Source of the DNA: Deltaproteobacteria bacterium
GTDB lineage: Bacteria > Myxococcota_A > UBA9160 > SZUA-336
Direction of reading: 5' to 3'
Assembly (NCBI GenBank): GCA_031396695.1
Contig: JANNLG010000171.1
Span: 6,053 to 70,052, forward strand
DNA length: 64,000 nucleotides
The translations under genes were made by a program, and so were the position numbers. The notes under the pieces were generated by a model. The model worked only from the letters and a program-made list of their open reading frames with translations, had not been told where the DNA came from and did not search any database. This document shows positions 2,165 through 60,603 of this stretch, one piece after another; the stretch's first letter is position 1, and each line of letters begins with the position of its first letter.

Positions 2165-3442
2165 GTGCGCGAGAGCGAGCAACGGACGCGGCCGCGGATC
2201 GTGATCGTGGGCGCCGGCTTCGGCGGCCTGCGCGCGGCGCGCGCGTTGGCGAAGGCCGACGTCTCGATCACGCTCGTGGACCAGCGCAACTACCATTTGT
2301 TCCAGCCGCTGCTCTATCAGGTGGCGACCTCGATGTTGCCGCCCGAGAGCATCGCCTACCCGGTGCGCGCGATCCTGCGCCGCCAGAAGAACCTCGAGTT
2401 CCGGCTCGCGCGCGTGGAGTCGGTCGACTTCGAAAAGCGCGAGCTCACGACCAGCGCGGGACCGATCGGCTACGACCGGCTCGTACTCGCGGTCGGCGGC
2501 CGCACGAACTTCTTCGGGCTCACGTCGGTGGAGCGCAACGGCTTCGGCTTGAAGGATCTCGACGAGGCCGTGAACGTGCGCAACCAGATCCTGCGCAGCT
2601 TCGAACGCGCGCTGCACGAGCCGAGCCCGGAGCGGCGCCGCGCCCACCAGACCTTCGTGGTGGTCGGCGGCGGACCGACCGGCGTCGAGAGCGCGGGCGC
2701 ACTCTCGGAGCTCGTGCGGCTCGTGCTCGCCAAGGACTTCGCCGCGCTCGAGATCAAGGACGTGCGCGTGATCTTGCTCGAGGCGACGCACGCGCTGCTG
2801 GCTGCGCTGCCCGAGAAGCTGCGCGAGGAGACCGCGCTGCGTCTCTGGCACAAGCACGTCGAGGTGCGCTTCGGCGCGCAAGTGGTCGAGTTCGACGGCG
2901 AGCGGGTGACACTGAAAGGTGGCGAGGTGATTCCCGCGCGCACGCTGATCTGGGCGGCGGGCGCGCGCGCGGCGGGCCTGATCGATCGACTCGGCCTGGC
3001 GCAGGGCGCGCAAGGCCGCGTGCGGATCGACGAGACGCTGCGCGTGCTCGACCACGACGACGTGTTCGCGATCGGCGACGCGGCCTTTCTAGAGCGCGCG
3101 GGTCAGCCGCTGCCGATGATGGCGCCGGTCGCCATGCAACAGGGCGAGCTGGTCGCGCGCAACGTCACGCGATCGCTCGAAGGCGCGCCGCTCGAGCCGT
3201 TCGCGTACCGCAACCCCGGTTCGCTCGCGACGATCGGCCGCAACGCCGCGGTCGCGCACCTGGGCCGCTTCGCGTTCACGGGCTTTCTCGCGTGGCTGCT
3301 CTGGCTGGCCGTCCACGTCGCGCAGCTGATCGGCTTTCGCAACAAGCTGCTCGTGCTGCTCGAGTGGGGCTGGGAGTACTTCACCTACGAACGAGCGGTG
3401 CGCCTGATCACCGCCGATCAGGTGCGCGAGCGCGGCGACTGA
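2165..3442 (+). CDS. ndh: type II NADH dehydrogenase (NDH-2), FAD-dependent
   Basis: Full-length track ORF. Has the N-terminal Rossmann motif RIVIVGAGFGGLRAARAL, then NYHLFQPLLYQVAT and a second VVVGGGPTGVE dinucleotide motif. The C-terminal hydrophobic tail is typical of NDH-2. Confidence 0.9.
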   Translation: MRESEQRTRPRIVIVGAGFGGLRAARALAKADVSITLVDQRNYHLFQPLLYQVATSMLPPESIAYPVRAILRRQKNLEFRLARVESVDFEKRELTTSAGPIGYDRLVLAVGGRTNFFGLTSVERNGFGLKDLDEAVNVRNQILRSFERALHEPSPERRRAHQTFVVVGGGPTGVESAGALSELVRLVLAKDFAALEIKDVRVILLEATHALLAALPEKLREETALRLWHKHVEVRFGAQVVEFDGERVTLKGGEVIPARTLIWAAGARAAGLIDRLGLAQGAQGRVRIDETLRVLDHDDVFAIGDAAFLERAGQPLPMMAPVAMQQGELVARNVTRSLEGAPLEPFAYRNPGSLATIGRNAAVAHLGRFAFTGFLAWLLWLAVHVAQLIGFRNKLLVLLEWGWEYFTYERAVRLITADQVRERGD

Positions 3443-3474
3443 ACCCGCGCGCGCGCGATCGGGTAGCATCGGGC

Positions 3475-4425
3475 ATGGCCAAACCCTTCCGCTTCGCGGT
3501 GCAGGTCTCGACGCTCCCCGCCGACGGCTGGATCGAGCGCGTGCGCTCGTACGAGCGACTCGGCTTCTCCACGGTCTTCTGCCCCGATCACTTCGGGCCG
3601 CAGTGGGATCCGACTGCGCTGCTCGCGGCGGCCGCCGCGGTCACGACACGACTCAATGTCGGGTCGCTGGTGTACGACGTCGACTACCGCCACCCCGTGA
3701 TCCACGCCAAGGGCGCCGCGACGATCCAGCTGCTCTCCGGCGGGCGGCACGAGTTCGGCATCGGCGCGGGTTGGATGCAGACCGACTACGACGAGGCGGG
3801 CATGCCTTACGACCGCCCAGGCCTGCGCATCGAGCGGCTCGACGAGGCGCTGCAGATCATCAAGAGCATGTGGGAGAACGAACGCACCACGTTCTCGGGC
3901 AAGCACTACAAGATCACCAACATCGCGAAGGCCGCCGAGCTGCCGGCCGGCGCGCGGCCCAAGATCCTGATCGGCGGTGGAGGACCGCGCGTGTTGCGGC
4001 TCGCGGGCCGGCACGCCGACATCGTCGGCATCAATCCGAGCCTGCCCGAGGGCAAGATCACGCGAGACAGTGCCGCCGATCTCGCGCCCGAGCGGCTCGA
4101 CGAGAAGCTGCGCCACGTGCGCGCGGGCGCGGAGGCCGCGGGCCGACGTTTCGACGAGATCGAGCTGAACTCGCTGACCTTCGTGGTGGCGATCACGGAT
4201 GATGCCTCGGGCCTGCGCGCGGGCCTGGCCGCGAACAGCGGAATGTCGGTCGAGCAGGTCGCGAACTGCCCGATCTTCCTGACCGGCTCCGCGGCGGAGA
4301 TCCGCGACGGGCTCGAGAAGCGGCGCGAGCGCTACGGGCTCTCGTACATCGTGATCCAGGGCCGCGATCCGGCCATGGTCGAGAAGTTCGCCGAGCTGAT
4401 CGTGGCGCCGCTGTCCGGCAAGTGA
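3475..4425 (+). CDS. LLM-class (luciferase-like) probable F420-dependent oxidoreductase
   Basis: ATG 3475 (MAKPFRFAVQVS...). Luciferase-like monooxygenase family pattern (FSTVFCPDHF, GGRHEFGIGAGW, PKILIGGGGPRVLRLAGRHADIVG). The upstream part of track ORF 3292.. overlaps ndh. Confidence 0.75.
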   Translation: MAKPFRFAVQVSTLPADGWIERVRSYERLGFSTVFCPDHFGPQWDPTALLAAAAAVTTRLNVGSLVYDVDYRHPVIHAKGAATIQLLSGGRHEFGIGAGWMQTDYDEAGMPYDRPGLRIERLDEALQIIKSMWENERTTFSGKHYKITNIAKAAELPAGARPKILIGGGGPRVLRLAGRHADIVGINPSLPEGKITRDSAADLAPERLDEKLRHVRAGAEAAGRRFDEIELNSLTFVVAITDDASGLRAGLAANSGMSVEQVANCPIFLTGSAAEIRDGLEKRRERYGLSYIVIQGRDPAMVEKFAELIVAPLSGK

Positions 4426-11605: not shown

Positions 11606-12043
11606 ATGAGAACCGCAATGACACGGCTCCTGTGTCGCTGCATGGGGATGTCGAGCCAGTGCGTCGCGGATCGGGTCCGCGAGCGCGGACTCGGCGACGT
11701 GGAGTCGATCGCCGCGAGCCTTGGCGCGGGTGGCTGCTGCGGAAGCTGTCGACCCGACCTCGAGGAGATCCTCGCCGACCTGCGCGGGGAGCCATTGCCC
11801 GAACCCGTGCGCCGCGCCAACCGCCTGCGCGGCGAGGCCGAGGCCTTCCGCCGCGTGGAAGCCGTGCTGTTCGGCAGCATCGTCGCGCGCCTGCCGCCGG
11901 GCACGGAGCTCGAGCTCGTTTCCGTATCCGGTTTGCGCGCGGAGCTGCACGTTGCGCACGGGGACTCACCGGAGCTGCGCACGCTGGTCGCCGAACGCCT
12001 GCAGAAGCTCGTCTGCGTCGAGCTCGAGGTGCAGTTCCGCTGA
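11606..12043 (+). CDS. (2Fe-2S)-binding BFD-like domain protein with C-terminal extension
   Basis: LLCRCMGMSSQCV...GAGGCCGSCRPDLEEIL is the BFD-like [2Fe-2S] four-Cys pattern. It is followed by a tail of about 80 aa. The start is ATG 11606 or ATG 11618. Confidence 0.7.
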   Translation: MRTAMTRLLCRCMGMSSQCVADRVRERGLGDVESIAASLGAGGCCGSCRPDLEEILADLRGEPLPEPVRRANRLRGEAEAFRRVEAVLFGSIVARLPPGTELELVSVSGLRAELHVAHGDSPELRTLVAERLQKLVCVELEVQFR

Positions 12044-12060: not shown

Positions 12061-12861
12061 ATGCGAGTCGAACGCATTCCGACGCTGCGCGACAACTACA
12101 CGTACCTGGTGATCGATCCGGCTTCGAACGAGGCGGCGGTGATCGACGCGCCGGAGGCCGCGCCGGTGATCGCGCGCGTCGCGAAGCTCGGGGTGCGCGT
12201 GACGAAGGTGATGTCGACGCACCACCACCTCGATCACAGCGGCGCGAATCCCGAGCTCGCCGCGCACTTCCGCGCGCCCGTGATCGGACACGCCTCCGAC
12301 GCCGCCCGCATTCCGGGCTTCACCACCGGCGTGGAGGAAGGCGAGCGCGTGCGCGTCGGCGCGCTCGAGGCCGACGTGCTGTTCATCCCGGCGCATACGC
12401 GCGGGCACGTCGCCTACGTGTTTCCCGGCGCCGTGTTCTGCGGTGACACGCTCTTCGCCGGCGGCTGCGGGCGGCTCTTCGAGGGCACCCCGCAGATGAT
12501 GCACGAGGCGCTGAACGTGAAGCTCGCGAAGCTCGCCGACGCGACGCTCGTCTACTGCGGGCACGAGTACACGGAGGCCAACCTGCGTTTCGCGCTCACG
12601 CTCGAGCCGGGCAACTCGGCGCTCGCCGCGCGCATCACGACGGTGAAGGCGCGCCGCGCGCACGCCGCGAGCGATTGGCACGACGCGACGGAGGCGGAGA
12701 TGACCGTGCCCTCGACGCTCGCCGACGAGCGCGCGACCAATCCGTTCATGCGTACGTCGGCGGCGGAGCTCGTCGCGAGCGTGCGCGCGCAGCTGCCCGG
12801 TACGTCGTCCGATCCCGTCAGCGTGCTCGGCGCGGTGCGCGCGCTGAAGGACAAGTTCTGA
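12061..12861 (+). CDS. gloB: hydroxyacylglutathione hydrolase (glyoxalase II)
   Basis: Full-length track ORF. The segments DNYTYLVID, the STHHHLDHSG metallo-beta-lactamase motif, GHEYT and NPFMR are typical of GloB. Confidence 0.9.
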   Translation: MRVERIPTLRDNYTYLVIDPASNEAAVIDAPEAAPVIARVAKLGVRVTKVMSTHHHLDHSGANPELAAHFRAPVIGHASDAARIPGFTTGVEEGERVRVGALEADVLFIPAHTRGHVAYVFPGAVFCGDTLFAGGCGRLFEGTPQMMHEALNVKLAKLADATLVYCGHEYTEANLRFALTLEPGNSALAARITTVKARRAHAASDWHDATEAEMTVPSTLADERATNPFMRTSAAELVASVRAQLPGTSSDPVSVLGAVRALKDKF

Positions 12862-13943: not shown

Positions 13944-15086
13944 CTACAGAGCCTTCGCCGCCTCTTCGAGCGCGACCACCACGTGATAGACGCTGGTCGC
14001 GTTCTGCGCGTCCGAGATCACGCGCCCGTCGCGCGCGAGCTGCTCGAACCAGCCGTGCGTCTTGGGATCGACGTGACGAGCGAAGCAGTAGCGCAAGCCG
14101 GCTTCCAGCTCGCGCCGCGCGATCGCGTCGCCCGTCGCCCGCGCGCGCGCGGCCAGCGCCTTGACGCGCTCGGTCTGCGGCCACAGTCGCTTGGTCACGG
14201 CGAGCGTCCGGCCCTCGGCGTCGATCTGGTCGAAGACTCCGCCGTCGGTGTCGACGCCCAAGCGGCGGCCGAACTCGAAGAGCCGATCGGACAGCGCGCG
14301 CGCCGCGTCGCTCGGCGCGAGCGACTGCAACCGATCGAGCAGCCAGACCCACTCGAAGTGATGCCCGGGCTCGACGATGCGCCCGGCATCGCCCGCGAGC
14401 GGCCGCCAGTGGGAGTCGAAGTGTTCGCCGAGCGCGCCCGTGCGCGCGTCGAGCCAGCGCGCGCCGAGCAGCTCCACGAGCGAGCGCGCGTCGCGCAGCG
14501 CGCCGCTGTCGGGCGCGACCTCGGCCAGCACCAGTAGCGCCTCGACCAAGTGCATGTGCGGGTTCTGTCGCCGCGGCCCCGCGAGCGGCTGCCAGTCCTC
14601 GCTCGCGGTCTCGAAGAAGCCACCCGAAACGGGATCGCGCAGCCGTTCGCGCAGGAGCTCGAGCGTCGCGCTCGCCAGCCGCAGGGACTCCGGCTCGCCG
14701 CTTGCCCGGTGGTGCTCGGCGAGCGCGAAGATCGCGAACGCATGCCCGTACAGATCCTTGCGTCGGTCGAGCGGCGCGCCCGCCTCGTCGGTGGTGGTGA
14801 ACCAACCGCCGAAGCGCGGGTCCCAGAAACGCGCGTGCAGGAACTCGAGTCCGTGCGCCACCGCGTTTCGCGCCCACGCGCCGGCGCCAAGTTCCGACGC
14901 GCGCGTGAACGCGAAGATCTGGCGCGCGTGGACCAGGAGTCGCTTGTGACCGTCGGGCAGCGGCGCCAGATCGGGTCCGAGCCGGTTCCAGTAGCCGCCG
15001 CGGTTGCGATCGAGACCGTGCCGTTCCCAGAGCGGCAGCAGCTCGTCGACCAGATGCGCGCGCAGCGTCAGGCGCGAGTGCTGCAT
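13944..15086 (-). CDS. AGE-family epimerase/isomerase (N-acylglucosamine 2-epimerase / mannose-6-P isomerase-like)
   Basis: ATG 15086 (MQHSRLTLRAHLVDELLPLWERHGLDRNRGGYW...). Shows the repeated (alpha/alpha)6-barrel pattern with KRLLVHARQIFAF, KDLYGHAFAIFALAE, NPHMHLVEALL, PGHHFEWVWLL and RLWPQTERVKA. Confidence 0.85.
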   Translation of the reverse strand: MQHSRLTLRAHLVDELLPLWERHGLDRNRGGYWNRLGPDLAPLPDGHKRLLVHARQIFAFTRASELGAGAWARNAVAHGLEFLHARFWDPRFGGWFTTTDEAGAPLDRRKDLYGHAFAIFALAEHHRASGEPESLRLASATLELLRERLRDPVSGGFFETASEDWQPLAGPRRQNPHMHLVEALLVLAEVAPDSGALRDARSLVELLGARWLDARTGALGEHFDSHWRPLAGDAGRIVEPGHHFEWVWLLDRLQSLAPSDAARALSDRLFEFGRRLGVDTDGGVFDQIDAEGRTLAVTKRLWPQTERVKALAARARATGDAIARRELEAGLRYCFARHVDPKTHGWFEQLARDGRVISDAQNATSVYHVVVALEEAAKAL

Positions 15087-15093
15087 CGCTCGC

Positions 15094-15435
15094 TCACGAC
15101 AGCGCGTCGGTGTAGGCCTCCGCGTTCCAACCGACCAGCAGCGTGTCGCCGACCACCAGCGCCGGCGCGCGCAGATTTCCGGTCGGCCCGAGGACGGCCT
15201 CGACGATCTCGTCGGGCGCTTTTCCGCCGGGCGTGAAGCTGCGCAGCGCTTTGCCTTTCGCCACGACAACGCGCCTCGCGGCCTTCACCAGCTTCGCGGC
15301 GTCGGCCTTGCCGAGCTTCTTGCTCGCAGAAACCGTCGCGACCGGCTCGATCTTCCTGGCGTCCAGAAACTTGGACGCTCGTTCGCAACTGGTTCAACCG
15401 TTGCGGTGGTAGTACCAGTCGATGCGCTTGGCCAT
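15094..15435 (-). CDS. ArsC/Spx/YffB-family protein with in-frame TGA at codon 14 (probable selenoprotein, U-x-x-C)
   Basis: ATG 15435 has GGAGG 9 nt upstream. The reading is MAKRIDWYYHRNG-[TGA 15396..15394]-TSCERASKFLDARKIEPV...AAKL, which runs in frame with no other stop into track ORF 15094..15288. The total is 113 codons, which is the family size. The TGA sits where the family has the first Cys of CxxC(R/K)KA..(F/W)L. A hairpin lies 15 nt downstream. Confidence 0.8.
15359..15378 (-). promoter_or_regulatory. SECIS-like stem-loop downstream of UGA
   Basis: The mRNA can form GCGUCCA-AGUUUC-UGGACGC, a perfect 7-bp stem with a 6-nt loop containing GU. It starts 15 nt after the UGA, so the loop falls about 22-28 nt downstream, within the range reported for bacterial SECIS elements. 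Confidence 0.6.
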
Positions 15436-15475
15436 GCGATCCACCCTCCGATTCGGAGATCGAGCTTAGCAAGCG

Positions 15476-15697
15476 TCAGGCGGGGACGGACTCCCCGCCC
15501 GCGAGACAGACGCTCGGGGCGCGCTGGCGGCGCTCGCCGTGGGTCTCGGCGAGCAGATCGTGCACCGTCTCGCGGCAGCCGCCGCAGCTCGAGCCCGCGC
15601 CGCACATCTCGGCGACCTGACAGGGCGTGCGAGCGCCCGCACGCGCGGCGTGCTGGATTTCGCGGTCGGTCACGGCGTGGCAGCTGCACACGATCAT
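15476..15697 (-). CDS. bfd: bacterioferritin-associated ferredoxin, (2Fe-2S)-binding
   Basis: ATG 15697. MIVCSCHAVTDREIQ...CQVAEMCGAGSSCGGCRETV is the canonical Bfd C-x-C...C-x2-C pattern. Product is 73 aa. Confidence 0.85.
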   Translation of the reverse strand: MIVCSCHAVTDREIQHAARAGARTPCQVAEMCGAGSSCGGCRETVHDLLAETHGERRQRAPSVCLAGGESVPA

Positions 15698-15718
15698 GAC
15701 CGACAGCCTACCTCGGAT

Positions 15719-15737
15719 GATAATGACAATCAATTAC
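15719..15737. promoter_or_regulatory. Fur-box-like operator
   Basis: GATAATGACAATCAATTAC matches 15 of 19 positions of the classical GATAATGATAATCATTATC. It lies in the AT-richest patch of the bfd/lemA divergent gap, 21 nt from the bfd start. Confidence 0.55.
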
Positions 15738-17774: not shown

Positions 17775-18230
17775 TCAGACCCTTTGCTTTTTCTGGCACC
17801 TCGGGCAGATCCCGTACAGGATGTGCCGGTGCTGGGTGAGCACGTAGCCGTGCTCGGCGGCGACCTTGCGCTGCTCTTCCTCGATCGTCTCGCGCTCGAA
17901 CTCGACGATCGCGCCGCAGACCTGACAGATCAGGTGGTCGTGGTGGTGGCCCTCGCGCTCGTAGAGCGTGACGCCGTCGCGGAAGTGATGCGCGCGAGCG
18001 ACGCCCGCCTCGCAGAACAGCTTCAGCGCGCGGTAGACGGTGGCGGCGCCCACGTCCGGGCTCGAGTGCAGGACGGCCTCGTACAGCTCTTCGCTGGTCA
18101 CGTGACCCTTCGCGTGCAGGAACGCGTCGAGGATCGCGTCGCGCTGCTTCGTCTGCTTCAGACCGTGGCGCGAGAGATGCTCCGACAGCTTCTCATGGGC
18201 GCGCCGGTCGGACTCGACCCCGGATGCCAT
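17775..18230 (-). CDS. fur: Fur family transcriptional regulator
   Basis: Full-length track ORF. Shows the winged helix (GLKQTKQRDAILDAF...TVYRALKLF), the HHHDHLIC metal site, and the CxxC...CxxC pairs (CQVC, CPRC). Confidence 0.9.
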   Translation of the reverse strand: MASGVESDRRAHEKLSEHLSRHGLKQTKQRDAILDAFLHAKGHVTSEELYEAVLHSSPDVGAATVYRALKLFCEAGVARAHHFRDGVTLYEREGHHHDHLICQVCGAIVEFERETIEEEQRKVAAEHGYVLTQHRHILYGICPRCQKKQRV

Positions 18231-23853: not shown

Positions 23854-24773
<920 letters not shown>

Positions 24774-24777
<4 letters not shown>

Positions 24778-25640
24778 ACCGGGAGCTCCTGCGCTCCGAC
24801 GCCGCGCGCGCCGCGCGGGCTCTGCGCGTGCGCGCGCGCCGCGACGTGTCGACGTCGCTGACCGGCGCGTACCGCAGCGCGTTCCGCGGTCAGGGGCTGA
24901 CGTTCGAAGAGCTGCGCGACTACGTGCCCGGCGACGACGTGCGCTGGCTGGAGTGGAACGCGACCGCGCGCATCGGCCGGCCGATCGTGAAGCGCATGCG
25001 CGAGGAGCGCGACGTGGTGCTCGCGCTGCTGGTCGACCTGTCGCCCTCGCTCGACTTCGGCTTCGCGGGCGCGACCAAGCTCGAGGCGGTGCGGCGCGCG
25101 GCCGCGGCGCTGGCGGCGGCCGCGACCGCGGCGCAGGACCGCGTGGCGCTGGCCGTATTCTCGCAGCGACTCACCCGCGTGCTGCCGCCCGCCAGCGGCC
25201 GCTCCGCGCTCGAGCGCGTGTTCCGCGCGCTCGAAGCGCCGAGCGAGGGTGAATTCACCGACGCGTCCGGCGCGCTCGGCTGGGCCGCGGAGAAGCTGCC
25301 GCGCCATTCGGTGGTCGTGCTGGTCTCGGATTTCCTGTTCCCCGATCCGGGGCCGGAGCTGCGCCGCTGCGCGAGCAAGCACGACCTGGTCGCGCTGTGC
25401 GTGCGCGACCCCGCCGATCGGCCCGCGCGCGGGCTCCCGCCGATCCGCGTGCGCGACGCAGAACTGCGTCGCGCACGGTGGTGGAGCAGCAGCGCGGCGG
25501 CCGAGTCCGCGCTCGGAGCGGCGCTGCCCGAACGGAGCTTGCGCGCGATCGGCGCCGACTTCGGCGAGCTGTGGACGGGCACGCGGCTGCTGCCGAGTCT
25601 GTTGCGCTTCTTCGAGGAGCGCGCGCGGAGACGGCATTGA
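24774..25640 (+). CDS. DUF58 domain-containing protein
   Basis: ATGA overlap with moxR. YRSAFRGQGLTFEELRDYVPGDDVRWLEWNATAR is the DUF58 signature. Confidence 0.85.
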
Positions 25641-34187: not shown

Positions 34188-34775
34188 CTAGTTTTGAGCC
34201 GGCAGATCCTCCGGCCGATTCAGATTCCGCAAACTCGCGAGCTCGGGATCGAGCGCGCGCAGGTCGGCTTCGGGGACGAAGACCGTGTTCAGGTCGCGCA
34301 GCAGCGCTTGCAGCGCGAGCTCGCCGCGCGCGATGCGGCGCTCGAGCTCGGGCAGGATGCGCGGGCGGTAGACGGCGAGCAGCGGCTCGGGGCCGCGTGG
34401 GCCGAGCGGCGCGACCACGTCGGCGCCGCCCTCCGTGGACACCAGCGCGAGCAGCGCGAGCAGCACGCGCGGGTCGATGTCGGGCAGATCGCATGCGGCT
34501 ACTAGCACGGCGCTCGACTCGCAGGCGGCCAGCGCCGCCGCGATGCCGACCAATGGCGCGCGCTCGGCGTGGCGGTCGACGATGCACTCGAGACCGAGCT
34601 CGGGCAGCTCGTCGGGTCGCGCCACGAAGCGCACGCGCTCCAGACACGCGCCGAGCGCGGCCGCGACGCGCGTGGCGAGCGGCGCGCCCTGATAGTGGAG
34701 CGTCGCCTTGTCGCGACCCATGCGCGTGGAGCTGCCGCCGACCAGCACCGCGCCTTCGACGTGCGAGAGCTTCAA
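34188..34775 (-). CDS. mobA: molybdenum cofactor guanylyltransferase
   Basis: TTG 34775 forms a TTGA overlap with the moeA stop. The segments GAVLVGGSSTRMGRDKA and VAACDLP are MobA motifs. Confidence 0.8.
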   Translation of the reverse strand: MKLSHVEGAVLVGGSSTRMGRDKATLHYQGAPLATRVAAALGACLERVRFVARPDELPELGLECIVDRHAERAPLVGIAAALAACESSAVLVAACDLPDIDPRVLLALLALVSTEGGADVVAPLGPRGPEPLLAVYRPRILPELERRIARGELALQALLRDLNTVFVPEADLRALDPELASLRNLNRPEDLPAQN

Positions 34776-36028
34776 AACCCGGGCTCGGTCTGCAGATCGT
34801 CGGAGTGGAGCAGCTGCACGGGCACTCGCGCGCCGGCTTCGACGCGGGTCGTGTCCTCGGCCACGAAGGCGAGCCCGTCGGCGCGCACCATCGAGAGCAG
34901 GATGTTCGAGCCCTGCGCGCCGGTCTCGCGCGCGTGCAGCTCGCCTGCCCGGCGCTCGAGCGTGACGCGCACGAAGTGCGCGCGGCCCTTGGGCTTGTCG
35001 TAGGCCTCATCGAGCACGGCCGACTCCACCGCACGGTACACACGTGTGTGTCCCATCATGCGCAGCAGACACGGCCGCACGAACTGCTCGAAGGTGACCA
35101 GCGTCGAGACGGGATTCCCGGGCAGGCCGAACACGGGCCGCTCGCCGATCGTCACGAACGCGAGCGGCGCACCCGGCTTCATGCGGATGCGCCAGAGCCG
35201 CAGGTTTCCGCCCAGACCCGCGAGCACCTGCTTGATCCAGTCGCGGTCACCGACCGAGACGCCGCCGGTCGAGATCACCGCGTCGCAGGCGAGCGCCGCG
35301 CGGAACTGGGCTTCGATCGGGTCGGGCTCGTCGGGGGCGATGCCCAGGTACACGGGCTCGGCGCCGATCTCGCGCAGGCCCGCGCACAGCGCGTACGAGT
35401 TCGAGCTGGCGATGCGGCCGTCCGCGCGCAGGCGGTCGGGCTCGACCAGCTCGTCGCCGGTCGCGAGCACCGCCACGCGCGGCCGCGCGCGCACCGAGAC
35501 CTGCGTGCGTCCGAGCGCGGCGAGCATGCCGACCAACGGCGCGCGCAGGATGTCGCCGGGTGATGCGACCAACACCCCGGGGTGTACGTCCGAGCCCGCG
35601 CGACGGATGTGCTGGCCGAGCTTCGGCGCGCTGCGCACGCGCACCTGCTCGCCCTCGACCGCGGTGTCTTCGACCATCACCACCGCGTCGGCGCCGGCGG
35701 GAATCGCGGCGCCGGTCATGATCCGCGCCGCCTCGCCCGCCCCGATCGCGCGCTGGCTGCGCTTGCCCGCGGGCAGGTCGTCGACGACGCGCAGCAGCGA
35801 CGGCGCGCGGACGGCGTCGGCGGCGCGCAGCGCGTAGCCGTCCATCGCGGAGTTGTCCTCGGGCGGGATCAGCACTCCGGCGTGGATCTGCTCGGCCAGC
35901 ACGCGTCCGGTCGCGCGCTCCAGCCCGAGGGTCTCGCGCCCGAGCGCGGGGGCCGAGCCGAGGATCAACTCGCGCGCCTCCGCGACGCTCACCGTCGACC
36001 GCTCCGCCTCGCCCTTGGCCTCGCGCAT
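34772..36028 (-). CDS. moeA: molybdopterin molybdotransferase
   Basis: ATG 36028 with GGAGGGG upstream. The segments NSAMDGYALRAAD, TGAAIPAGADAVV, STGGVSVGDRD, MKPGAPLAF and GLPGNPVS match MoeA. Confidence 0.9.
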   Translation of the reverse strand: MREAKGEAERSTVSVAEARELILGSAPALGRETLGLERATGRVLAEQIHAGVLIPPEDNSAMDGYALRAADAVRAPSLLRVVDDLPAGKRSQRAIGAGEAARIMTGAAIPAGADAVVMVEDTAVEGEQVRVRSAPKLGQHIRRAGSDVHPGVLVASPGDILRAPLVGMLAALGRTQVSVRARPRVAVLATGDELVEPDRLRADGRIASSNSYALCAGLREIGAEPVYLGIAPDEPDPIEAQFRAALACDAVISTGGVSVGDRDWIKQVLAGLGGNLRLWRIRMKPGAPLAFVTIGERPVFGLPGNPVSTLVTFEQFVRPCLLRMMGHTRVYRAVESAVLDEAYDKPKGRAHFVRVTLERRAGELHARETGAQGSNILLSMVRADGLAFVAEDTTRVEAGARVPVQLLHSDDLQTEPGF

Positions 36029-36104
36029 CACCCCTCCGCGGGCTAGTCTGCCCAAAACTTAGGCAGATCGCCCTGCGATCGCCGCGGCGTGAGCATGCAC
36101 CGGT

Positions 36105-42307: not shown

Positions 42308-44143
42308 TCAGGACATCAGCTCCGCGGTACCCGGCTGAGCCTCCGCGTAGCGGCGGTGCGTTGCGGTGTAGGTCTCGCGCCAGAAGGCGTCGATCTCGGC
42401 CGCGGACGGAAACGCCGCCGAGAAGCCGGGCTGCACCGGATCGAGCGCGAGCTCCGAGGCGCGGATGAAGTGCGCGAGCAGCGTGCGCGGGTCCTCGTCG
42501 CCGACCGCGATCCGGATCGTGGTGGGAGAGATGCCGGCGGCCGCGAGCGCATCCGCGGCGAGCTCCGAGTGGCTGGTGAGCGCCGGGCACAGCACCACCG
42601 TGTTGGTCTGACCCAGGCTCACCTGCAGCCCGAACGCCGGCTCGAGGCAGTCGAAGAAGCGCTTGAACGCCTCGATCCCGATCGGCGCCGCGCCGCCCGC
42701 CTCGCCCTCGAAGTCGATCGTGAACAGCGGCGCGGGCAGCCCCAGGTACAAGAGCCGCTCGCGCAGCGGGCCGTTCTCGTCGCCCGGCACGGCGTTGCAG
42801 CGCACGCGGATGCCCGGGTGGCGCGCGAGCACCTGCGCGAGCACGAGCGTCGCGATGCATTTCTGCAGCATGCGCAGCTCGAGCGTGCGCATGCCGTTGA
42901 TCACTTCGAAGGCCTTGTCCGCGTCTAGGAACGCGCCCTTCACGTAGTAGACGTTCCAGAACAGCGTGTCGCTCCAGTCGAACACGCGCAGCTTGCCGTC
43001 GGGGCCGGGCAACTCGAGCGACGAGCCCTTGGGAATGAACATGCGCTCGTTGCGCGCGATCGCGACGCCCGCCGTGGTGGTGCCAGTGCCCACCAGATCC
43101 TTCGTGTAGGAGTGGATCACGAAGTCGGGCCGTTCGCGTGGATCGTCGCGCCGCAGCACCGGATGCAGAAACGGCGTGCCGACCGTCGCGTCGCAAATCA
43201 CCTCGATGCCCGCGGCGTGCGCGACGCGACTTATGCCCGGCACGTCGAGCACGTAGCCGTGCGGGTTGCAGGGCGACTCCAGGTACACGTAGATGCGTCG
43301 GCCCTGCGCGATGCGGTCGCCGAACTCGTCCTGCACCGCGGCGAGCGCGGCGTCGAAGTCGGCCACGCCGGTGCCGTCGAAGAAGCGCACCGCGATGTCG
43401 AGGTTGCTGCGCTTGCCGTACCAGTCGTGCAGGAGCTGGTGCGCGCCCCCGTAGACGTTGCGGCTGGCCAACACGATGTCGCGGTAGCCGACCAGGTGCG
43501 CGAGCACGGCATCGATCGCGGCCATGCCGGAATTGAAGTTCCAGGCGAAGTACTCACCCGCGAGCGGTCCGCACTCGACGTCGACCACGTGGTTCGCCAG
43601 GCAGGTCGAGGTCGGGTTCATCAGCCGCGAATAGATCTCGTGCAGCAGCTCCTTGCCCTGGAAGGCGTCGTCGATCCACTCGGTGCAGGCGTACAGGTAG
43701 GTCGCGGTGCGCGTGATCACGGGCGTGGAGCTGAAGATCGCCGTCACGTTGTCGAAGATCGGGTAAGGCCCGCGCGCGGGACCGGCCGAGTGCTCGACCG
43801 CCAGCGACTGCCAGGTCTTGCGCATCGGGTTCTGCAGCGTGTCGAGCACCTTGGCGAGCTGGAAACACAGGAAGCGCTTGGCGTTGAAGAAGGCGATGCG
43901 ATCGCGCCGGTCGAGCCGCGCGAGCTGGCGCACCGTCTCTTCCCAGAGCCCGTGCATGGCCTGGTTCGCGCGGTAGACGTGGGTCGCGACTTCCGCGAGC
44001 TCACGCCCGAGCGGGCTCGCGGGGTCGAGCGAGAAGTGGCGCAGCTGCTCGTCGACCAGCGCCTCGACGCTGTTCGCGCGCGTGGTCTTGCGCAGCGGGC
44101 TCAGCTCGCGCGCGTGCTGCCGTTCGGAATCGAATCCGCTCAT
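42308..44143 (-). CDS. PLP-dependent transferase of the Cys/Met-metabolism (trans-sulfuration) fold with a long N-terminal extension
   Basis: ATG 44143 preceded by GGGGGGGAG. Product is 611 aa. Core motifs are NPTSTCLANHV, FNSGMAAI, YLESPCNP and the Schiff-base region IHSYTKDLVGTG. The first 170 aa or so were not recognised. The remainder of track ORF 42308..46276 is an out-of-context extension. Confidence 0.8.
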   Translation of the reverse strand: MSGFDSERQHARELSPLRKTTRANSVEALVDEQLRHFSLDPASPLGRELAEVATHVYRANQAMHGLWEETVRQLARLDRRDRIAFFNAKRFLCFQLAKVLDTLQNPMRKTWQSLAVEHSAGPARGPYPIFDNVTAIFSSTPVITRTATYLYACTEWIDDAFQGKELLHEIYSRLMNPTSTCLANHVVDVECGPLAGEYFAWNFNSGMAAIDAVLAHLVGYRDIVLASRNVYGGAHQLLHDWYGKRSNLDIAVRFFDGTGVADFDAALAAVQDEFGDRIAQGRRIYVYLESPCNPHGYVLDVPGISRVAHAAGIEVICDATVGTPFLHPVLRRDDPRERPDFVIHSYTKDLVGTGTTTAGVAIARNERMFIPKGSSLELPGPDGKLRVFDWSDTLFWNVYYVKGAFLDADKAFEVINGMRTLELRMLQKCIATLVLAQVLARHPGIRVRCNAVPGDENGPLRERLLYLGLPAPLFTIDFEGEAGGAAPIGIEAFKRFFDCLEPAFGLQVSLGQTNTVVLCPALTSHSELAADALAAAGISPTTIRIAVGDEDPRTLLAHFIRASELALDPVQPGFSAAFPSAAEIDAFWRETYTATHRRYAEAQPGTAELMS

Positions 44144-52080: not shown

Positions 52081-53535
52081 ATGGTCGGGTGGCTCTGGCT
52101 CGCTCCGTTCATCCTCGCCTTCACACCGACGGCGATCTGGCTGTACCAGCGCGGCACGCAATCGGCGTTCAGCGAGGTGCACACGCTGTTCATGCCGCTC
52201 GTGCTCGCGTACCTGATTCGCGAGCAGCTGAAGCTCGATCCGGACCCGACCCCGCGCTCGTCAGCACTGGGCTTCCTGTTCGTCGTGCCCGCGCTGGCGC
52301 TGGTCGCGCTCGACGCGGCGATGCACACGCAGATGCTGGGCGCGATCGCGCTGGTGATTGCGCTGCCGGGGATCTCGCTGCTCCTGCTCGGCACGCGCCG
52401 CACGCGCGAGCTCGCGTTCCCGCTCGCGCTGGCCGTGTTCATCGTGCCGATTCCCACGGGCATGCTGACGCCGCTCTACAGCGTGCTGCGGCCGATCGCC
52501 GCGATCGGCACGACCTGGCTGGTGCCGCTGTTCGGCATGCCGATCGCGCGCGTCGGCACGGCGCTCTCGGTGCCGGGACTCGCGGTCGAGGTCGCGGACA
52601 ACTGCTCCGGCTGGTCGTCGCTGCAGGCCGCGGTGATCACGGCGCTGGTGCTCGCGCACTTCTCGAGCTCGAAACAGCGGAGGCTCGCGCTACTGCTCTC
52701 CGCCATCCCGGTCGCGATCGTCTGCAACATCCTGCGCGTGACCGCGCTCGTGTTGCTGGCGCAACGCTACGGCGCCGAGCTGCTCGACACCACGCTGCAT
52801 CCCGCGTCGGGCGTGATCCTGTTCGGTGTCGTGATCGCGGTGCTGTTCGCGATCGCGGGACCCGACGCCATGCGCTCGGCCAAGGCTTCGGGCCAGCGCG
52901 TCGTCGTCGCGACGCGCTACGCGCTGGCGCTCGCGGCGCTCTGCGCGCTCGCGCTGATCCCGGTCGGCATGCACTCGACCGCGCGCCTGCGCGGCGACGA
53001 CTGCGCGAACGCCGCCGCGCTCGTGCCCTCGGACGGAAGCGTCGATCCCGCCCGCGCGCTGTTGATGCAGCAGCAGTACAAGGCCTCGCAGTGGCGCGAG
53101 GGTACGCTGCCGGCAACCGCGGACACGCCGGCGCTTCGCTACGCCGTGATTCGCAACTACGAACCGAGGCTGCTCTACTACCGCGGCTCGCGCCGGCTCT
53201 GGCAGGACGTCGAGCCTGGCGCCGACACCATCGAGTGGCTGGAGTCCGACGACGGCCGGCTGCCGATCGTGCGCTCGCAGCTCGCGGGCGATCGGCCGGG
53301 GCAGCCGCGCGCGGTGATCGCGTCGCTGCTCGTCTACGAGGGCGAGCCCGTCGAAACCGGCTGGCGCGCGCAGCTCCGCGCGGCGCCGCGCCAGATGTTC
53401 ACGGGCAGTCGCCCGATGACCTTGTTCACGGTACGGGGTGACGTGCAGGGCGGCGATCACGCGGCGGTGGAAAAGCGCGCGCACGCGTACCTGCTCGATT
53501 CGTGGCGAACCTACCGGGCTCTGTGCCGGCACTGA
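52081..53535 (+). CDS. exosortase-family protein with C-terminal EpsI-like domain
   Basis: AGGAG lies 5 nt before ATG 52081. The multi-TM core carries the exosortase catalytic signatures: VADNCSGWSS (Cys), CNILRV (Arg) and LHPASG (His). An extra TM segment and a soluble tail of about 200 aa resemble EpsI; that part is inference. Confidence 0.75.
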   Translation: MVGWLWLAPFILAFTPTAIWLYQRGTQSAFSEVHTLFMPLVLAYLIREQLKLDPDPTPRSSALGFLFVVPALALVALDAAMHTQMLGAIALVIALPGISLLLLGTRRTRELAFPLALAVFIVPIPTGMLTPLYSVLRPIAAIGTTWLVPLFGMPIARVGTALSVPGLAVEVADNCSGWSSLQAAVITALVLAHFSSSKQRRLALLLSAIPVAIVCNILRVTALVLLAQRYGAELLDTTLHPASGVILFGVVIAVLFAIAGPDAMRSAKASGQRVVVATRYALALAALCALALIPVGMHSTARLRGDDCANAAALVPSDGSVDPARALLMQQQYKASQWREGTLPATADTPALRYAVIRNYEPRLLYYRGSRRLWQDVEPGADTIEWLESDDGRLPIVRSQLAGDRPGQPRAVIASLLVYEGEPVETGWRAQLRAAPRQMFTGSRPMTLFTVRGDVQGGDHAAVEKRAHAYLLDSWRTYRALCRH

Positions 53536-55769
53536 GCACACGCACCGCGTTCCGAACCTGCCCGATCTGCGAGGCGAGCTGTGGACTCGCGCTCTCGCTC
53601 GAGGGCGAGCGCGTGCTGCGTGTGCGCGGAGACGAGCGCGACGTCACCAGCCGCGGCTACCTGTGCCCGAAGGGCGCCGCGCTCGGCGAGCTGCACCACG
53701 ACCCCGACCGGCTGCGCACACCGCTCGTGCGCGGGCCCGAGGGTCTGCGCGCGGCGAGCTGGGACGAGGCGTTCGCGGAGATCGAGCGGCGCCTGCAGCC
53801 GGTGATCGAGCGACACGGCCGCGGATCGGTCGCCGTCTACGTCGGCAATCCCACCGCGCACGACTACTCGCTCTACGCCTATCTGCCCGCGCTGCTGCTG
53901 GCGGCCGGCACGCACCAGCTCTACACGGCGGGCACGGTCGACCAGCAGCCGAAGCAGGTCGCGGTGAACTGCATGTTCGGCACGGCCTGGGGCATTCCCG
54001 TGCCGGACGTCGACCGCACGCAGTATCTGCTCGTGCTGGGCGCGAACCCGGCGGCTTCAAACGGGAGCCTGCTGGTCGCGCCGGATCTACAGGGCCGGCT
54101 CGACGCGATCCGCGCGCGCGGCGGGCGCGTGGTGGTGGTCGATCCGCGCCGCACGAAGACCGCCGAACGCGCCGATGAATGGCTGCCGATCCGACCTGGC
54201 ACCGACGCGCTGTTCCTGTTCGCGCTGGTGAACACGCTGTTCGCGGAGGGGCGCGTCGCACTCGGCGCGCTCGGCGCGCACGTGAACGGAGTCGAGCGGC
54301 TGCGCGAGCTCGCGGCGGAGTTCACGCCGGAATCGGTCGAGGCGCGTTGCCGGATTCCCGCAACCACGATTCGCAGGATCGCGCGCGAGCTGGCGAGCGC
54401 CGAGCGCGCCGCCGTGTACGGCCGCGTCGGCACCTGCACGCAGGAGTTCGGCACGCTCGCGAGTTGGGGGATCGACGCGCTGAACGTGCTCACCGGAAAC
54501 CTCGATCGCGTCGGCGGCGTGATGTGGAGCCGGCCGCTGGCCGGCGGCGACCACACGCGCGGCGCGAAGGGGCGCGGACCGGAGTTCCAGGTCGGCCGCT
54601 TCCGCACGCGCGTGCGCGGGGCGCCCGAGGTTCTGTTCCAGCTGCCCGCCGCCTGCCTCGCCGAAGAGATCGACACCCCCGGCGAGGGACAGATCCGCGC
54701 GCTCGTGGTGATCGCCGGAAATCCCGCACTCTCGGTGCCCGACGGCGAGCGGCTCGACCGCGCGCTGGCGCAGCTCGACTGTCTGGTCTCGCTCGACCTG
54801 TTCGTGAACGAGACCGCGCGCCACGCACACGTCGTGCTGCCGTCGCCCTCGCCGCTGCAACAGCCGCACTACGACGCCCTGCTCTATCAGGTCGCCGTGC
54901 GCAACGCCGCACGCTACTCGAAGCCCGTCCTGCCGCTCGACGTCGACGCGCTGCCGGAGTGGCAGATCATGCTGCGCCTGGCCGCGATCTTCGCCGGCCA
55001 GGGCGCGAAGGCGGACGCGAACGCGCTCGACGACGGCTACTTCGCCGCGCGGCTACACGCACAGGTGTCGGACCCGAGCTCGCCGATCCACGGCCGCGAC
55101 CCGGGCGAGCTGGTCGCGCTCGCCGCCGGACGGCGCGGGCCCGAGCGCATCCTCGACCTCGAACTGCGCACCGGTCCCTACGGAGACGGCTTCGGCGCCG
55201 TGCCGGGCGGGCTCTCGCTCGCGGAGCTCGAGCGCCACCCGCACGGGCTCGATCTCGGTCCGCTCGAGCCTGCGCTGCCGGACGTGCTGCGCACGCCGAG
55301 CGGCAAGATCGAGCTCGCGCATCCATACCTGGCCGCCGACCTGCCGCGGCTGCGCGAGCGCCTGTCGCGTCCTGACGACGACGGGCTGCTGCTGATCGGC
55401 CGGCGCGACCTGCGCTCGAACAACTCGTGGCTGCACAACGCGCCGTCGCTGATGACCGGTCGCGAGCGCTGCACGCTGGTCGTGCACCCCGCCGACGCCG
55501 CCGAGCGCGGCCTCGGCGGCGGCGATCTCGCGCAGATCCGTTCCGCGGCTGCGACGCTGGTGGTCGCGGTAGAGGTCAGCGACGAGGTCGCGCGCGGCGT
55601 CGTGTGCTTGCCGCACGGCTTCGGACACGGCCGGGCGGGCGCGCGTCTCACGGTCGCCGCACGCCGACCCGGCGTGAACTCGAACGCGCTCTCGGATGCC
55701 CGCGCGCTCGACGCGCCGTCGGGAACCGCGGTCGTGAACGGCATCCCGGTCGAGGTCGCACGCGCCTGA
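53523..55769 (+). CDS. molybdopterin-dependent oxidoreductase (Mo/W-bisPGD family)
   Basis: GTG 53523 (or GTG 53502) overlaps the exosortase stop. The N-terminal 4Fe-4S motif is CPICEASCG...YLCPKG. Molybdopterin and dinucleotide-binding domains follow, ending with the C-terminal VNGIPVEV. There is no in-frame TGA. Confidence 0.85.
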   Translation: MPALSTRTAFRTCPICEASCGLALSLEGERVLRVRGDERDVTSRGYLCPKGAALGELHHDPDRLRTPLVRGPEGLRAASWDEAFAEIERRLQPVIERHGRGSVAVYVGNPTAHDYSLYAYLPALLLAAGTHQLYTAGTVDQQPKQVAVNCMFGTAWGIPVPDVDRTQYLLVLGANPAASNGSLLVAPDLQGRLDAIRARGGRVVVVDPRRTKTAERADEWLPIRPGTDALFLFALVNTLFAEGRVALGALGAHVNGVERLRELAAEFTPESVEARCRIPATTIRRIARELASAERAAVYGRVGTCTQEFGTLASWGIDALNVLTGNLDRVGGVMWSRPLAGGDHTRGAKGRGPEFQVGRFRTRVRGAPEVLFQLPAACLAEEIDTPGEGQIRALVVIAGNPALSVPDGERLDRALAQLDCLVSLDLFVNETARHAHVVLPSPSPLQQPHYDALLYQVAVRNAARYSKPVLPLDVDALPEWQIMLRLAAIFAGQGAKADANALDDGYFAARLHAQVSDPSSPIHGRDPGELVALAAGRRGPERILDLELRTGPYGDGFGAVPGGLSLAELERHPHGLDLGPLEPALPDVLRTPSGKIELAHPYLAADLPRLRERLSRPDDDGLLLIGRRDLRSNNSWLHNAPSLMTGRERCTLVVHPADAAERGLGGGDLAQIRSAAATLVVAVEVSDEVARGVVCLPHGFGHGRAGARLTVAARRPGVNSNALSDARALDAPSGTAVVNGIPVEVARA

Positions 55770-58645: not shown

Positions 58646-60603
58646 GCGGACCCGTCGAGCCGGTCGCGCGCTCTTCGGTCGAAACGCTGGCGAGCTTCGC
58701 GCGCGCGCTGCGCTACGCCGCGCCGCTGCGCGGACGCTTCGCGGCGAAGATCGGACTCACGGCGCTCTCGCTCGTGCCGATGCTGGTCCTGCCCGTGCCG
58801 ATCAAGCTGTTGATCGATCACGTGATCGGAGATCTCTCGATCGCCGATCGGATCCACTCGTATCCCATGCTCGCCCGGCCGTTCGTGCGCCTGCTCGAGC
58901 ACGCCGACTACACGGAGATCCTCGCCTGGACGATCGGCGCGCAGGCGCTGCTCCTGATCCTGATCGGGCAGATCGGCTCCGACGGCGGCGAGCGCGACCG
59001 CACCGACGCCTGGCTCGCGTCGGGCGTCGACGCCGCGACCGCGACCGAGAACGCGGCGAACGCGGGCTTCAGCTTCGCGGGCGGACTGTTCGGGCTGTTC
59101 GATTTCCGCTGGACGCTGCGGCTCACGCAGGACCTGAACCACCACTACCGAGCGAGGCTCTTCGAGCGCATCCAGAGTCTGCCGCTGCATCTGTTCGACG
59201 ACGCGCGCATCGGCGACGCGGTCTACCGCCTGATGTACGACACGCCGGCCATCACGCAGACTTGCTACCGGATCATCCTGGTGCCGACGCTCGTGCCGTT
59301 CGCGATCGCGGCCTACGCGTTCACGATCTGGGACAGCTTCGGCCAGTCGCGGCTCGCGCTGGCGGCGATCGCGTTCGCGCCGCTCGCGTTCATCGCGACG
59401 TGGCCGTTCGCGCGGCTCGTGCGCCGACAGGGCGGGCGCAGCCGCGCGGCCGGGTCCGTGTCCACGACCTCGCTCGAGGAAGGCGTCGCGAACATCTTGG
59501 CGGTGCAGACGCAGGGCGGCGAGGGCCGCGAACGCGCGCGCTTCGATCGCGACAGCGCGCGCTCGTTCGCGCAACACCGCGGCGTGATGGCGCTCGGGAT
59601 GATCGCGATCCTGGTCGCTTTCGTGCCCGGCATCGCGCTGCTGCGCTGGGTGTTTCTCGAGATCGTGGAATTGGTGATCTCGGGCGCGATCAGCCTGGGC
59701 GACTTCTCTGTGCTCTTCACCTATTTCATCCAGATCGGCGTCTTCGCGGTGATGTTCGGATCGCTCTGGTTCACGCTGCAGACTTCGGCGCCGGGCCTGG
59801 AGCGCGTGTTCTTCCTGATGGATCTCGAGCCCGAGCGCGACCCCCCCGGCGCGCGCGAGCTGCCACGCGCCACGCGCAGCCTGGCGTTCGAGGACGTCGA
59901 CTTCGCCTGGCCCGACGGCACGCCCGCGCTGCGCGGCGTGTCGTTCGAGGCGACACTCGGTCGCGTCACCGCGATCGTCGGCCCGGCGGGCGCGGGCAAG
60001 ACCACGCTGATCTACCACGTGCCGCGTTTCCTGCAGCCGACGCGCGGCCGGGTTCGCGTCGACGGCGTCGATCTCGCCGGCGTCACGCGCGATTCGCTGC
60101 GCGCGCAGATCGCGTTCATCTTCCAGGAGAGCGCGCTCTTCGACGGAACGATCGAGGAGAACCTGCGGCTCGCGAACCCGAACGCCTCCGAGCTCGAGCT
60201 GCGCCGCGCTGTGCAGATCTCCGGCGCGGACGAATTCGTGCGCCGTCTACCCGATGGCCTCGCGACGCGGCTCGGCCGCGCAGGCGCCGGGCTTTCGGTC
60301 GGCCAGAAGCAGCGCCTCGCGATCGCGCGAGGCCTGCTGCGAGACGCGCCCATCCTGATCCTGGACGAGCCGACCTCCGCGCTCGATCCCGACACCGAAC
60401 GGCGTCTGCTCGCGAGCTTGCGCGAAGCCGCGCGCGAGCGCATCGTGCTGGTGGTCGCGCACCGGCTCTCGACCGTGCGCGCAGCCGACCAGATCCTGTT
60501 CCTGCGCGACGGCGCGATCGTCGAGCGCGGCACCCACGACGAGCTGATCGCCATCCCCGGAGGCGCCTACCGCCGCTACGCGGAACTGCAGTCCGCTGGC
60601 TGA
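58642..60603 (+). CDS. ABC transporter ATP-binding protein/permease (exporter half-transporter 2)
   Basis: GTGA overlap at 58642. The TMD is followed by Walker A GPAGAGKTT, signature LSVGQKQR and Walker B ILILDEPT. Confidence 0.9.
   Translation: MSGPVEPVARSSVETLASFARALRYAAPLRGRFAAKIGLTALSLVPMLVLPVPIKLLIDHVIGDLSIADRIHSYPMLARPFVRLLEHADYTEILAWTIGAQALLLILIGQIGSDGGERDRTDAWLASGVDAATATENAANAGFSFAGGLFGLFDFRWTLRLTQDLNHHYRARLFERIQSLPLHLFDDARIGDAVYRLMYDTPAITQTCYRIILVPTLVPFAIAAYAFTIWDSFGQSRLALAAIAFAPLAFIATWPFARLVRRQGGRSRAAGSVSTTSLEEGVANILAVQTQGGEGRERARFDRDSARSFAQHRGVMALGMIAILVAFVPGIALLRWVFLEIVELVISGAISLGDFSVLFTYFIQIGVFAVMFGSLWFTLQTSAPGLERVFFLMDLEPERDPPGARELPRATRSLAFEDVDFAWPDGTPALRGVSFEATLGRVTAIVGPAGAGKTTLIYHVPRFLQPTRGRVRVDGVDLAGVTRDSLRAQIAFIFQESALFDGTIEENLRLANPNASELELRRAVQISGADEFVRRLPDGLATRLGRAGAGLSVGQKQRLAIARGLLRDAPILILDEPTSALDPDTERRLLASLREAARERIVLVVAHRLSTVRAADQILFLRDGAIVERGTHDELIAIPGGAYRRYAELQSAG

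Follow-up and report, generated by a model that had tools for sequence, protein, structure and literature searches.

The window analyzed here is a stretch of 64,000 nucleotides (nt) from contig JANNLG010000171.1 of assembly GCA_031396695.1, a deltaproteobacterium placed by GTDB in Myxococcota_A. On its minus strand, between a gene for a BFD-like [2Fe-2S] protein and one for an AGE/GlcNAc-2-epimerase-family protein, the only open reading frame (ORF) listed in the frame of interest is 15094..15288, which begins with GTG and encodes 64 amino acids (aa). The same frame read from an ATG farther upstream, behind a Shine-Dalgarno-like GGAGG, gives the peptide MAKRIDWYYHRNG, then a TGA at 15396..15394, then TSCERASKFLDA, and stays open to 15094; directly past the TGA it proceeds as TSCERASKFLDARKIEPVATVSASKKLGKADAAKL into the listed 64-aa ORF without a further stop. 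The G+C content of the complete gene, whose features are collected in Table 1, is 71%. An earlier note on this DNA, made from the sequence alone, had proposed that the two segments form one gene of the ArsC/Spx type, in which the UGA is recoded as selenocysteine (Sec) and is followed by a hairpin resembling a selenocysteine insertion sequence (SECIS). Everything it stated at the level of the sequence, from the ATG at 15435 and the GGAGG through the TGA to the joined 113 codons, holds. The broader proposal is borne out by a match to the curated family NF041106, by conservation of the TGA, by its pairing with Cys in homologs, and by the fit of the hairpin to the published bacterial SECIS (bSECIS) model. 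We therefore conclude, with a probability of roughly 0.9, that 15094..15435 is a gene of the NF041106 family in which Sec is encoded.

When one genome per species was scanned, 64 related loci emerged, which span Myxococcota/"Deltaproteobacteria", Planctomycetota, Acidobacteriota, Krumholzibacteriia, Acidimicrobiales, Gammaproteobacteria, Spirochaetaceae, Fibrobacteraceae, and other groups. The codon aligned to 15396..15394 is TGA in 63 of the 64, while TGC takes its place in L064, the most distant of them at 31% identity. The sequence before the TGA, MAKRIDWYYHR(K/N)G, is nearly invariant, with divergence limited to the remotest members, the Acidobacteriota loci L058-L060 among them; T-S-C follows directly after the TGA in most loci. 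Across codons -12 to -1 the same amino acids are encoded with synonymous variation (GCC, GCG, GCA, or GCT for Ala, CGC or CGA for Arg, and GGC, GGT, or GGG for Gly), which indicates that selection acts on the protein encoded by the upstream segment, in the frame that it shares with the downstream one. Two doubts raised by the earlier note, that homologs might begin after the TGA and lack the N-terminal CxxC segment, and that the in-frame TGA might not be shared by related genomes, are answered by these loci, which keep the upstream peptide and, with the single exception given above, the TGA.

Protein databases present a different picture of the same family. Among the 120 best matches, 106 are fragments of 64-102 aa whose start lies past the TGA. 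One of them, P0011 (from locus L001, the closest relative in GenBank), is annotated as a 79-aa "hypothetical protein", just as the earlier note had expected in warning that standard gene callers would truncate such a gene and lose its active site. The other fourteen comprise eleven full-length sequences with Cys at the Sec position (P0010, P0015, P0018, P0031, P0047, P0088, P0106, P0112, P0113, P0117, and P0118) and three with Trp. The Cys-type homologs read C-T-x-C at the position of U-x-x-C, in frames without interruption, and Cys17 is invariant among them. In the homolog alignment, residues G83, G86, N87, L88, R89, A90, and P91 of the GPTGNLRAP motif are also invariant.

These data bear on the possibility that the UGA is a real stop, and that the locus is either a pseudogene or encodes a leader peptide of 13 codons and then, from a start of its own, a protein of 64-79 aa. 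Public annotations do call the downstream part only (P0011 and many others, at 79-99 aa), and no stop codon is used more often in the window than UGA. A stop at the same codon in 63 genomes from many phyla is, however, hard to reconcile with a strongly conserved upstream peptide that varies synonymously, and the Cys homologs run uninterrupted through this position. The truncated product would be left without strand beta-1 and the CxxC active site. No start codon or ribosome-binding site is conserved past the TGA; the called products vary accordingly in length, at 64, 79, 84, 90, 96, or 99 aa. We consider a genuine stop extremely unlikely.

If the UGA is translated, Sec is not the only residue that might be inserted. 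Near-cognate decoding as Trp, Cys, or Arg, or a genetic code in which UGA is generally a sense codon, would be in keeping with the three database entries recorded with Trp and with the fact that Sec machinery was not found within the 64-kb window. These three entries (P0055, P0063, and P0076) read KGWTSC or KGWTTC at the Sec position, and apparently they are most simply explained by gene callers that applied a UGA=Trp table, another form of mis-annotation. A changed code is contradicted by the window itself: TGA ends 28 of the 42 complete genes of at least 140 aa called in it (two further genes run off the window ends), and it also terminates the gene under study, so UGA is not reassigned genome-wide and the recoding is local. 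Moreover, the position is that of the CxxC nucleophile, the only sense alternative found there is Cys, which is the hallmark Sec/Cys pair, and a hairpin matching the bSECIS consensus lies downstream. Read-through as a residue other than Sec is thus very unlikely. By comparative sequence criteria, the conserved in-frame UGA, its conserved flanks, and the Sec/Cys pair at the CxxC nucleophile constitute a classical selenoprotein signature. Five loci (L050, L051, L053, L055, and L056, from Krumholzibacteriia and unclassified metagenome-assembled genomes) encode U-T-S-S or U-T-S-A, without the resolving Cys, and their mechanism may be another one, of the monothiol type.

The conceptual product, written with C in place of U, matches NCBIfam model NF041106, "ArsC family (seleno)protein", with a score of 112.4 bits where the curated cutoff is 85, and residues 5-108 align to positions 1-107 of the 107 in the model. 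This full-length match upholds the description of the joined product as an ArsC/Spx-type protein with Cys or Sec at residue 14. The closeness of that link, on the other hand, had been overstated. A Pfam scan of the product returned no family at E <= 0.01, ArsC (PF03960) included, and precomputed PF03960 matches are weak and occur for some homologs only. The Spx/MgsR model TIGR01617 scores 17.5 bits, short of its cutoff of 75.05, and TIGR00014, for glutaredoxin-coupled ArsC, gives no match. With PF03960 and TIGR01617 both below threshold, the protein is not a member of the classical ArsC or Spx families, and any relationship must be remote.

Profile and structure comparisons support such a relationship. 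A family profile, built from the window protein and the eleven full-length Cys homologs and searched against the PDB, finds Spx (E = 1e-9), SACOL0876 (2M46, 5e-9), YffB (1RW1, 4e-6), and the ArsC-related protein 3GKX (1e-5). The resulting alignment places U/C14-T-x-C17 on C10-T-S-C13 of Spx, and GNLRAP on GLLRRP of Spx. An AlphaFold2 model of the Cys homolog P0010, which is 59% identical to the window protein, has a pLDDT of 90.6, and in it the first Cys begins helix 1, directly past strand 1. This is the canonical site of thioredoxin-fold active centers. When the P0010 model was compared with the PDB by Foldseek, the top matches were again Spx, YffB, and ArsC-related proteins, at a modest TM-score of about 0.55. 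Judged from these comparisons, kinship to ArsC and Spx is real, even though the thresholds of the classical families are missed.

The hairpin claimed by the earlier note, a perfect 7-bp stem 15 nt past the UGA, is present. It consists of GCGUCCA (15378..15372), the loop AGUUUC (15371..15366), and UGGACGC (15365..15359), with a folding energy of -10.9 kcal/mol and a z-score of -4.9 relative to shuffles of the 20-mer. The consensus for bacterial SECIS elements specifies 3-9 nt for the loop, 4-16 bp for the stem, a UGA-to-loop distance of 16-37 nt, and an energy no higher than -7.5 kcal/mol, with a G within the first two loop positions that is usually followed by G or U (PMC13188914). The window hairpin lies within all four constraints, having a 6-nt loop with G at position 2 and then U, 7 bp, a spacing of 22 nt, and the energy given above.

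In a family this rich in G+C, minimum free energy (MFE), whether compared with synonymous permutations or with other windows of the same genes, proved uninformative, and counts of hairpins at a specific position were used instead. The significance attached to the hairpin comes from its positional conservation across homologs rather than from its energy. A perfect stem of 6 bp or more whose apex lies 22-38 nt past the UGA occurs in 52 of the 64 Sec genes, as compared with 21.6 +/- 3.2 in synonymous permutations (200 runs, maximum 30). The strict consensus is satisfied by 33 of the 64, versus 7.3 +/- 2.3 in the permutations. Scanned along the genes, apex positions peak at +24 to +35 nt. Among Cys-type homologs for which DNA was available, just two of eight carry a hairpin of 6 bp or more at that position.

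Covariation within clades also preserves the pairing. Across the 20 closest relatives, which share ...ASKFLDA..., the stem seen in the window is 98.6% paired, whereas controls slid to other positions reach 24-34%; two of its pairs are doubly changed, one from G-C to A-U (GCG..GAC to GCA..GAU) and one from G-C to U-A. A second clade, encoding ...(S/A)QGFLA..., has CGCAGGG-GUU-CCUUGCG, one register off, with 100% pairing and one covarying pair. The covariation proposed earlier as a check is therefore found in the close relatives and in the second clade, but the Planctomycetota-type clade described below has no shared stem. With each of three amino acid motifs (KFLD, GFLA, and AFLEG), a stem forms equally far from the UGA. 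In the closest Cys-type relative (P0010, encoded at L065:154-492, with TGT at the Sec codon and 59% identity), the same stem is kept at the same distance, as GCGUCCAG-AUUC-CUGGACGC; possibly this is a fossil SECIS left by a recent conversion from Sec to Cys.

It might be argued that the hairpin is a by-product of A-S-K-F-L-D-A codons, which are palindromic, and of high G+C, with the real recoding signal elsewhere. The weak MFE z-scores would fit this explanation, as would the retention of the hairpin by the Cys-type L065, the finding that about one-third of synonymous permutations also yield a stem of at least 6 bp at that position, and the Planctomycetota-type members that differ in register and lack the loop G. 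Against it, the codons actually used exceed the permutations by the margins reported above, compensatory pairs have arisen through synonymous changes, three different motifs converge on one distance from the UGA, the apexes cluster at a preferred place along the gene, and most Cys forms have no hairpin. We regard the by-product explanation as unlikely, although not negligible, and consider it likely, from the comparative data, that the hairpin in the window is the SECIS element of this gene.

Several observations weigh against the assignment as a selenoprotein gene with a conventional SECIS. In stability, the 46 nt that follow the UGA do not exceed their synonymous permutations, with z = +0.37 for the window and a mean of -0.73 over 64 genes. 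When folded in a 71-nt context, the MFE structure prefers a competing stem, UUUCUGG-ACG-CCAGGAA. About 26 genes of the Planctomycetota type (...SDAFLEG...) form their stem in another register, with CUC or CUU loops that lack the consensus G. The homologs are related to one another, so that the counts given above overstate the number of independent observations. Rfam returned nothing for the whole 64-kb window at gathering thresholds, leaving the hairpin unmatched, and at E <= 10 on 15000..15600 it returned only chance-level matches to P35, guanidine-II, and twister-sister, none of them on the hairpin. Finally, SelA, SelB, and SelD did not turn up when about 55 genes that cover the window were scanned with Pfam, and ARAGORN and Rfam found no tRNA-Sec in the window; nor did ARAGORN find a tRNA-Sec in the flanks of 60 related loci.

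As to the competing structure, its 7-bp stem at 15345..15369 (minus strand) overlaps the 3' arm of the hairpin, so that the two are mutually exclusive. It is confined to sequences that encode D-A-R-K, namely those of the window, L018, and L019, and is not conserved. The Planctomycetota-type members were compared with the published bSECIS model, applied with a perfect stem, and nearly all fail; only L035, with the loop GUACAUC, passes. RNAalifold found no common stem in the 26 sequences of this type. A single consensus structure for all 64 sequences can be ruled out, as stems occur in three registers. Because the Planctomycetota-type hairpins are off-register and without the loop G, the SECIS of the family is not uniform. 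The alignments suggest at least three non-homologous stem registers, each tracking the encoded motif (KFLD, GFLA, or AFLEG), and the Planctomycetota-type hairpins may represent a distinct SECIS class.

The most probable course of events at this locus is as follows. A single gene would be translated into a 113-residue thioredoxin-fold protein of the ArsC/Spx superfamily, with the UGA at codon 14 decoded as Sec. With that UGA in the A site, SelB-GTP-Sec-tRNA(Sec) would be recruited through the apical G-U loop of the stem-loop at 15359..15378, and Sec would be inserted at residue 14 in a manner dependent on this stem-loop within the coding sequence. The terminal UGA at 15096..15094, with no such structure following it, would be read by RF2 and would end translation. 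U14-T-S-C17, at the start of helix 1, would most likely make the product a selenol/thiol oxidoreductase, in which Sec14 would attack an oxidized substrate, Cys17 would resolve the adduct as a selenenylsulfide, and the thioredoxin or glutathione system would reduce the selenenylsulfide again. There is nothing in favor of arsenate as the substrate, since the gene has no ars context and its product matches neither PF03960 nor TIGR00014; no arsR, arsB, or acr3 was seen among the scanned genes of the window. As for the catalytic Arg triad of ArsC, the Arg of the LRAP loop is the only one visibly conserved. Similarly, there is nothing in favor of RNA polymerase binding of the Spx kind.

Table 1. Features of the putative selenoprotein gene, its neighbors in the 64,000-nt window, and one clade of related loci.
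Feature	Position	Strand	Remarks or basis
Complete coding sequence, predicted UxxC selenoprotein	15094..15435	-	113 sense codons including Sec14, plus terminal TGA
Shine-Dalgarno-like GGAGG	15445..15449	-	9 nt 5' of the ATG; read from sequence
ATG start	15435..15433	-	147 nt upstream of the listed ORF
N-terminal 13 codons, MAKRIDWYYHRNG, dropped by gene callers	15397..15435	-	Conserved peptide, synonymous codon variation
In-frame UGA, predicted Sec, residue 14	15394..15396	-	TGA conservation, Cys in homologs, alignment with Spx Cys10
Cys17 codon TGC, presumed resolving Cys of U-T-S-C	15385..15387	-	Aligns with Spx Cys13
SECIS-like hairpin GCGUCCA-AGUUUC-UGGACGC	15359..15378	-	Energy, consensus, pairing in homologs
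GPTGNLRAP motif, residues 83-91, equivalent of the ArsC/Spx "LLRRP" loop	15163..15189	-	Aligns with Spx GLLRRP
True terminator, also UGA	15094..15096	-	Read from sequence
BFD-like [2Fe-2S] gene, all-Cys form	15476..15733	-	Pfam PF04324, E = 2.8e-14; 40 nt upstream of the selenoprotein ATG
AGE/GlcNAc-2-epimerase-family gene	13944..15086	-	Pfam PF07221, E = 3.9e-71; ATG 7 nt past the selenoprotein stop
Second BFD-like [2Fe-2S] gene, all-Cys	11606..12043	+	Pfam scan
Hydroxyacylglutathione hydrolase (glyoxalase II, GloB-like)	12061..12861	+	Pfam scan
Fur-family regulator	17775..18230	-	Pfam scan; 2.3 kb from the selenoprotein gene
Molybdenum-related entries	53502..55769; 34188..36055	+; -	
Planctomycetota-type members	nt +15 to +50 past the TGA		L015, L023, L027-L031, L033-L047, L049, L052, L061-L063

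Pfam confirms that a BFD-like gene and an AGE-family gene flank the putative selenoprotein gene, as the earlier note had said in describing an unusual operon. The arrangement is lineage-specific, however, and not a feature of the family. The order bfd, selenoprotein, AGE recurs only in the closest relative, L001, whose selenoprotein is 88% identical, and an AGE gene also lies downstream in L002 by itself. Searches with the bfd and AGE proteins by tblastn, together with all-against-all clustering of flanking ORFs in the 64 loci, revealed no family-wide neighbor, the largest cluster being a ThyX-like protein at eight of the 64 loci. The three minus-strand genes of the window are separated by gaps of 40 nt and 7 nt, with no terminator-like site between them, and this spacing makes co-transcription plausible, if lineage-specific. 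The neighborhood has an iron and redox flavor (Table 1). BFD/CopZ-like proteins also figure among the listed selenoprotein families (PMC13188914).

The gene arrangement and the hairpin data can be joined in one composite reading: the selenoprotein was recruited into a BFD-like/AGE three-gene unit in this Myxococcota lineage, and the Planctomycetota SECIS is distinct. As a combination, we judge this quite improbable. Within such a unit, going by gene order, the Sec protein could be devoted to redox exchange with either the ferredoxin or the AGE-family enzyme. If so, the three-gene unit would be the first physiological context for a selenoprotein family without an assigned function.

Other parts of the window were scanned as well, and no other convincing TGA-interrupted coding frame was found. 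One molybdopterin oxidoreductase, with Fe4S4, Molybdopterin, and Molydop_binding domains, is encoded in an uninterrupted frame and is therefore not a formate dehydrogenase of the Sec type; cofactor genes of the MobA-like and MoeA types occur at other places in the window. ARAGORN reported an 85-nt "tRNA-Ala(cgc)" at 4281..4365 on the minus strand, antisense inside a luciferase-like monooxygenase ORF (3292..4425, plus strand). This call is most likely a false positive, Rfam finding no tRNA in the window at its gathering threshold. From 23854 to 30396 on the plus strand, a row of genes encodes a MoxR-type AAA ATPase, a DUF58 protein, VWA-domain proteins, a protein with VWA and TPR, and a BatD-like protein, resembling a Bat/aerotolerance-like operon. 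Short ORFs of odd composition at 42663..43976 (plus) and 58908..60005 (minus), with GC1 of about 0.5, GC2 of about 0.7, and GC3 above 0.9, were considered as broken genes and rejected; they are antisense shadows of a pyridoxal phosphate-dependent Cys/Met-metabolism enzyme (42308..44137, minus) and an ABC transporter (58648..60603, plus), respectively.

Selenoproteins related to ArsC have been described several times. ArsC-type selenoproteins, named "arsenate reductase" and carrying UxxS, were reported in 2005 from the Sargasso Sea metagenome (PMC1088965), and "ArsC-like" and "distant ArsC homolog" selenoproteins followed in 2006 from bacterial genomes (PMC1794560). The GOS data set contributed "Arsenate reductase 2" (cd03032, UxxC), with 42 Sec and 238 Cys sequences (PMC2398784). 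NF041106 is itself listed as a UxxC selenoprotein (PMC13188914). The gene in the window is thus a further member, probably mis-annotated, of a selenoprotein family already curated. The value of recognizing it lies mainly in annotation, as most homologs in the databases are called as fragments of 64-99 aa in which the active site is lost. A correct call adds a selenoprotein to the inventory of the organism and implies that it has machinery for Sec decoding. The BFD-like ferredoxin, the AGE-family enzyme, and the nearby Fur-family gene, being a lineage-specific set, offer a weak lead to function.

Among known systems, the nearest is NF041106 itself, also described as "Arsenate reductase-like protein, UxxC" (PMC13188914; PMC9312934), which has the same motif, the same size, the same place for the UGA, and an in-frame hairpin of the SECIS type. 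The window copy differs only in its BFD-like and AGE flanks, and in nothing essential. The UxxC motif does set it apart from the "arsenate reductase" selenoproteins of marine metagenomes, which are UxxS (PMC1088965; PMC2398784). With glutaredoxin-coupled ArsC (PF03960/TIGR00014) it shares the thioredoxin-like superfamily and an N-terminal nucleophilic Cys or Sec after strand beta-1. YffB (PA3664; PDB 1RW1) and the proteins of entries 3GKX, 2M46, and 2KOK are similar in size and fold, with profile E-values from 4e-5 to 5e-9, but they are Cys or monothiol forms of uncharacterized function, less than 25% identical to the window protein.

Spx is a redox-sensing, RNA polymerase-binding regulator of the ArsC family, and to our knowledge no Spx is a selenoprotein. 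The Bacillus subtilis protein (PDB 1Z3E, 3GFK, 6GHB) has the same fold and length, and its CTSC aligns with U14-T-S-C17. At the RNA level, the SECIS of Escherichia coli fdhF is likewise a stem-loop within the coding sequence just past the UGA. The fdhF and fdnG elements have no sequence similarity to the hairpin in the window, whose role in SelB recognition is a predicted one.

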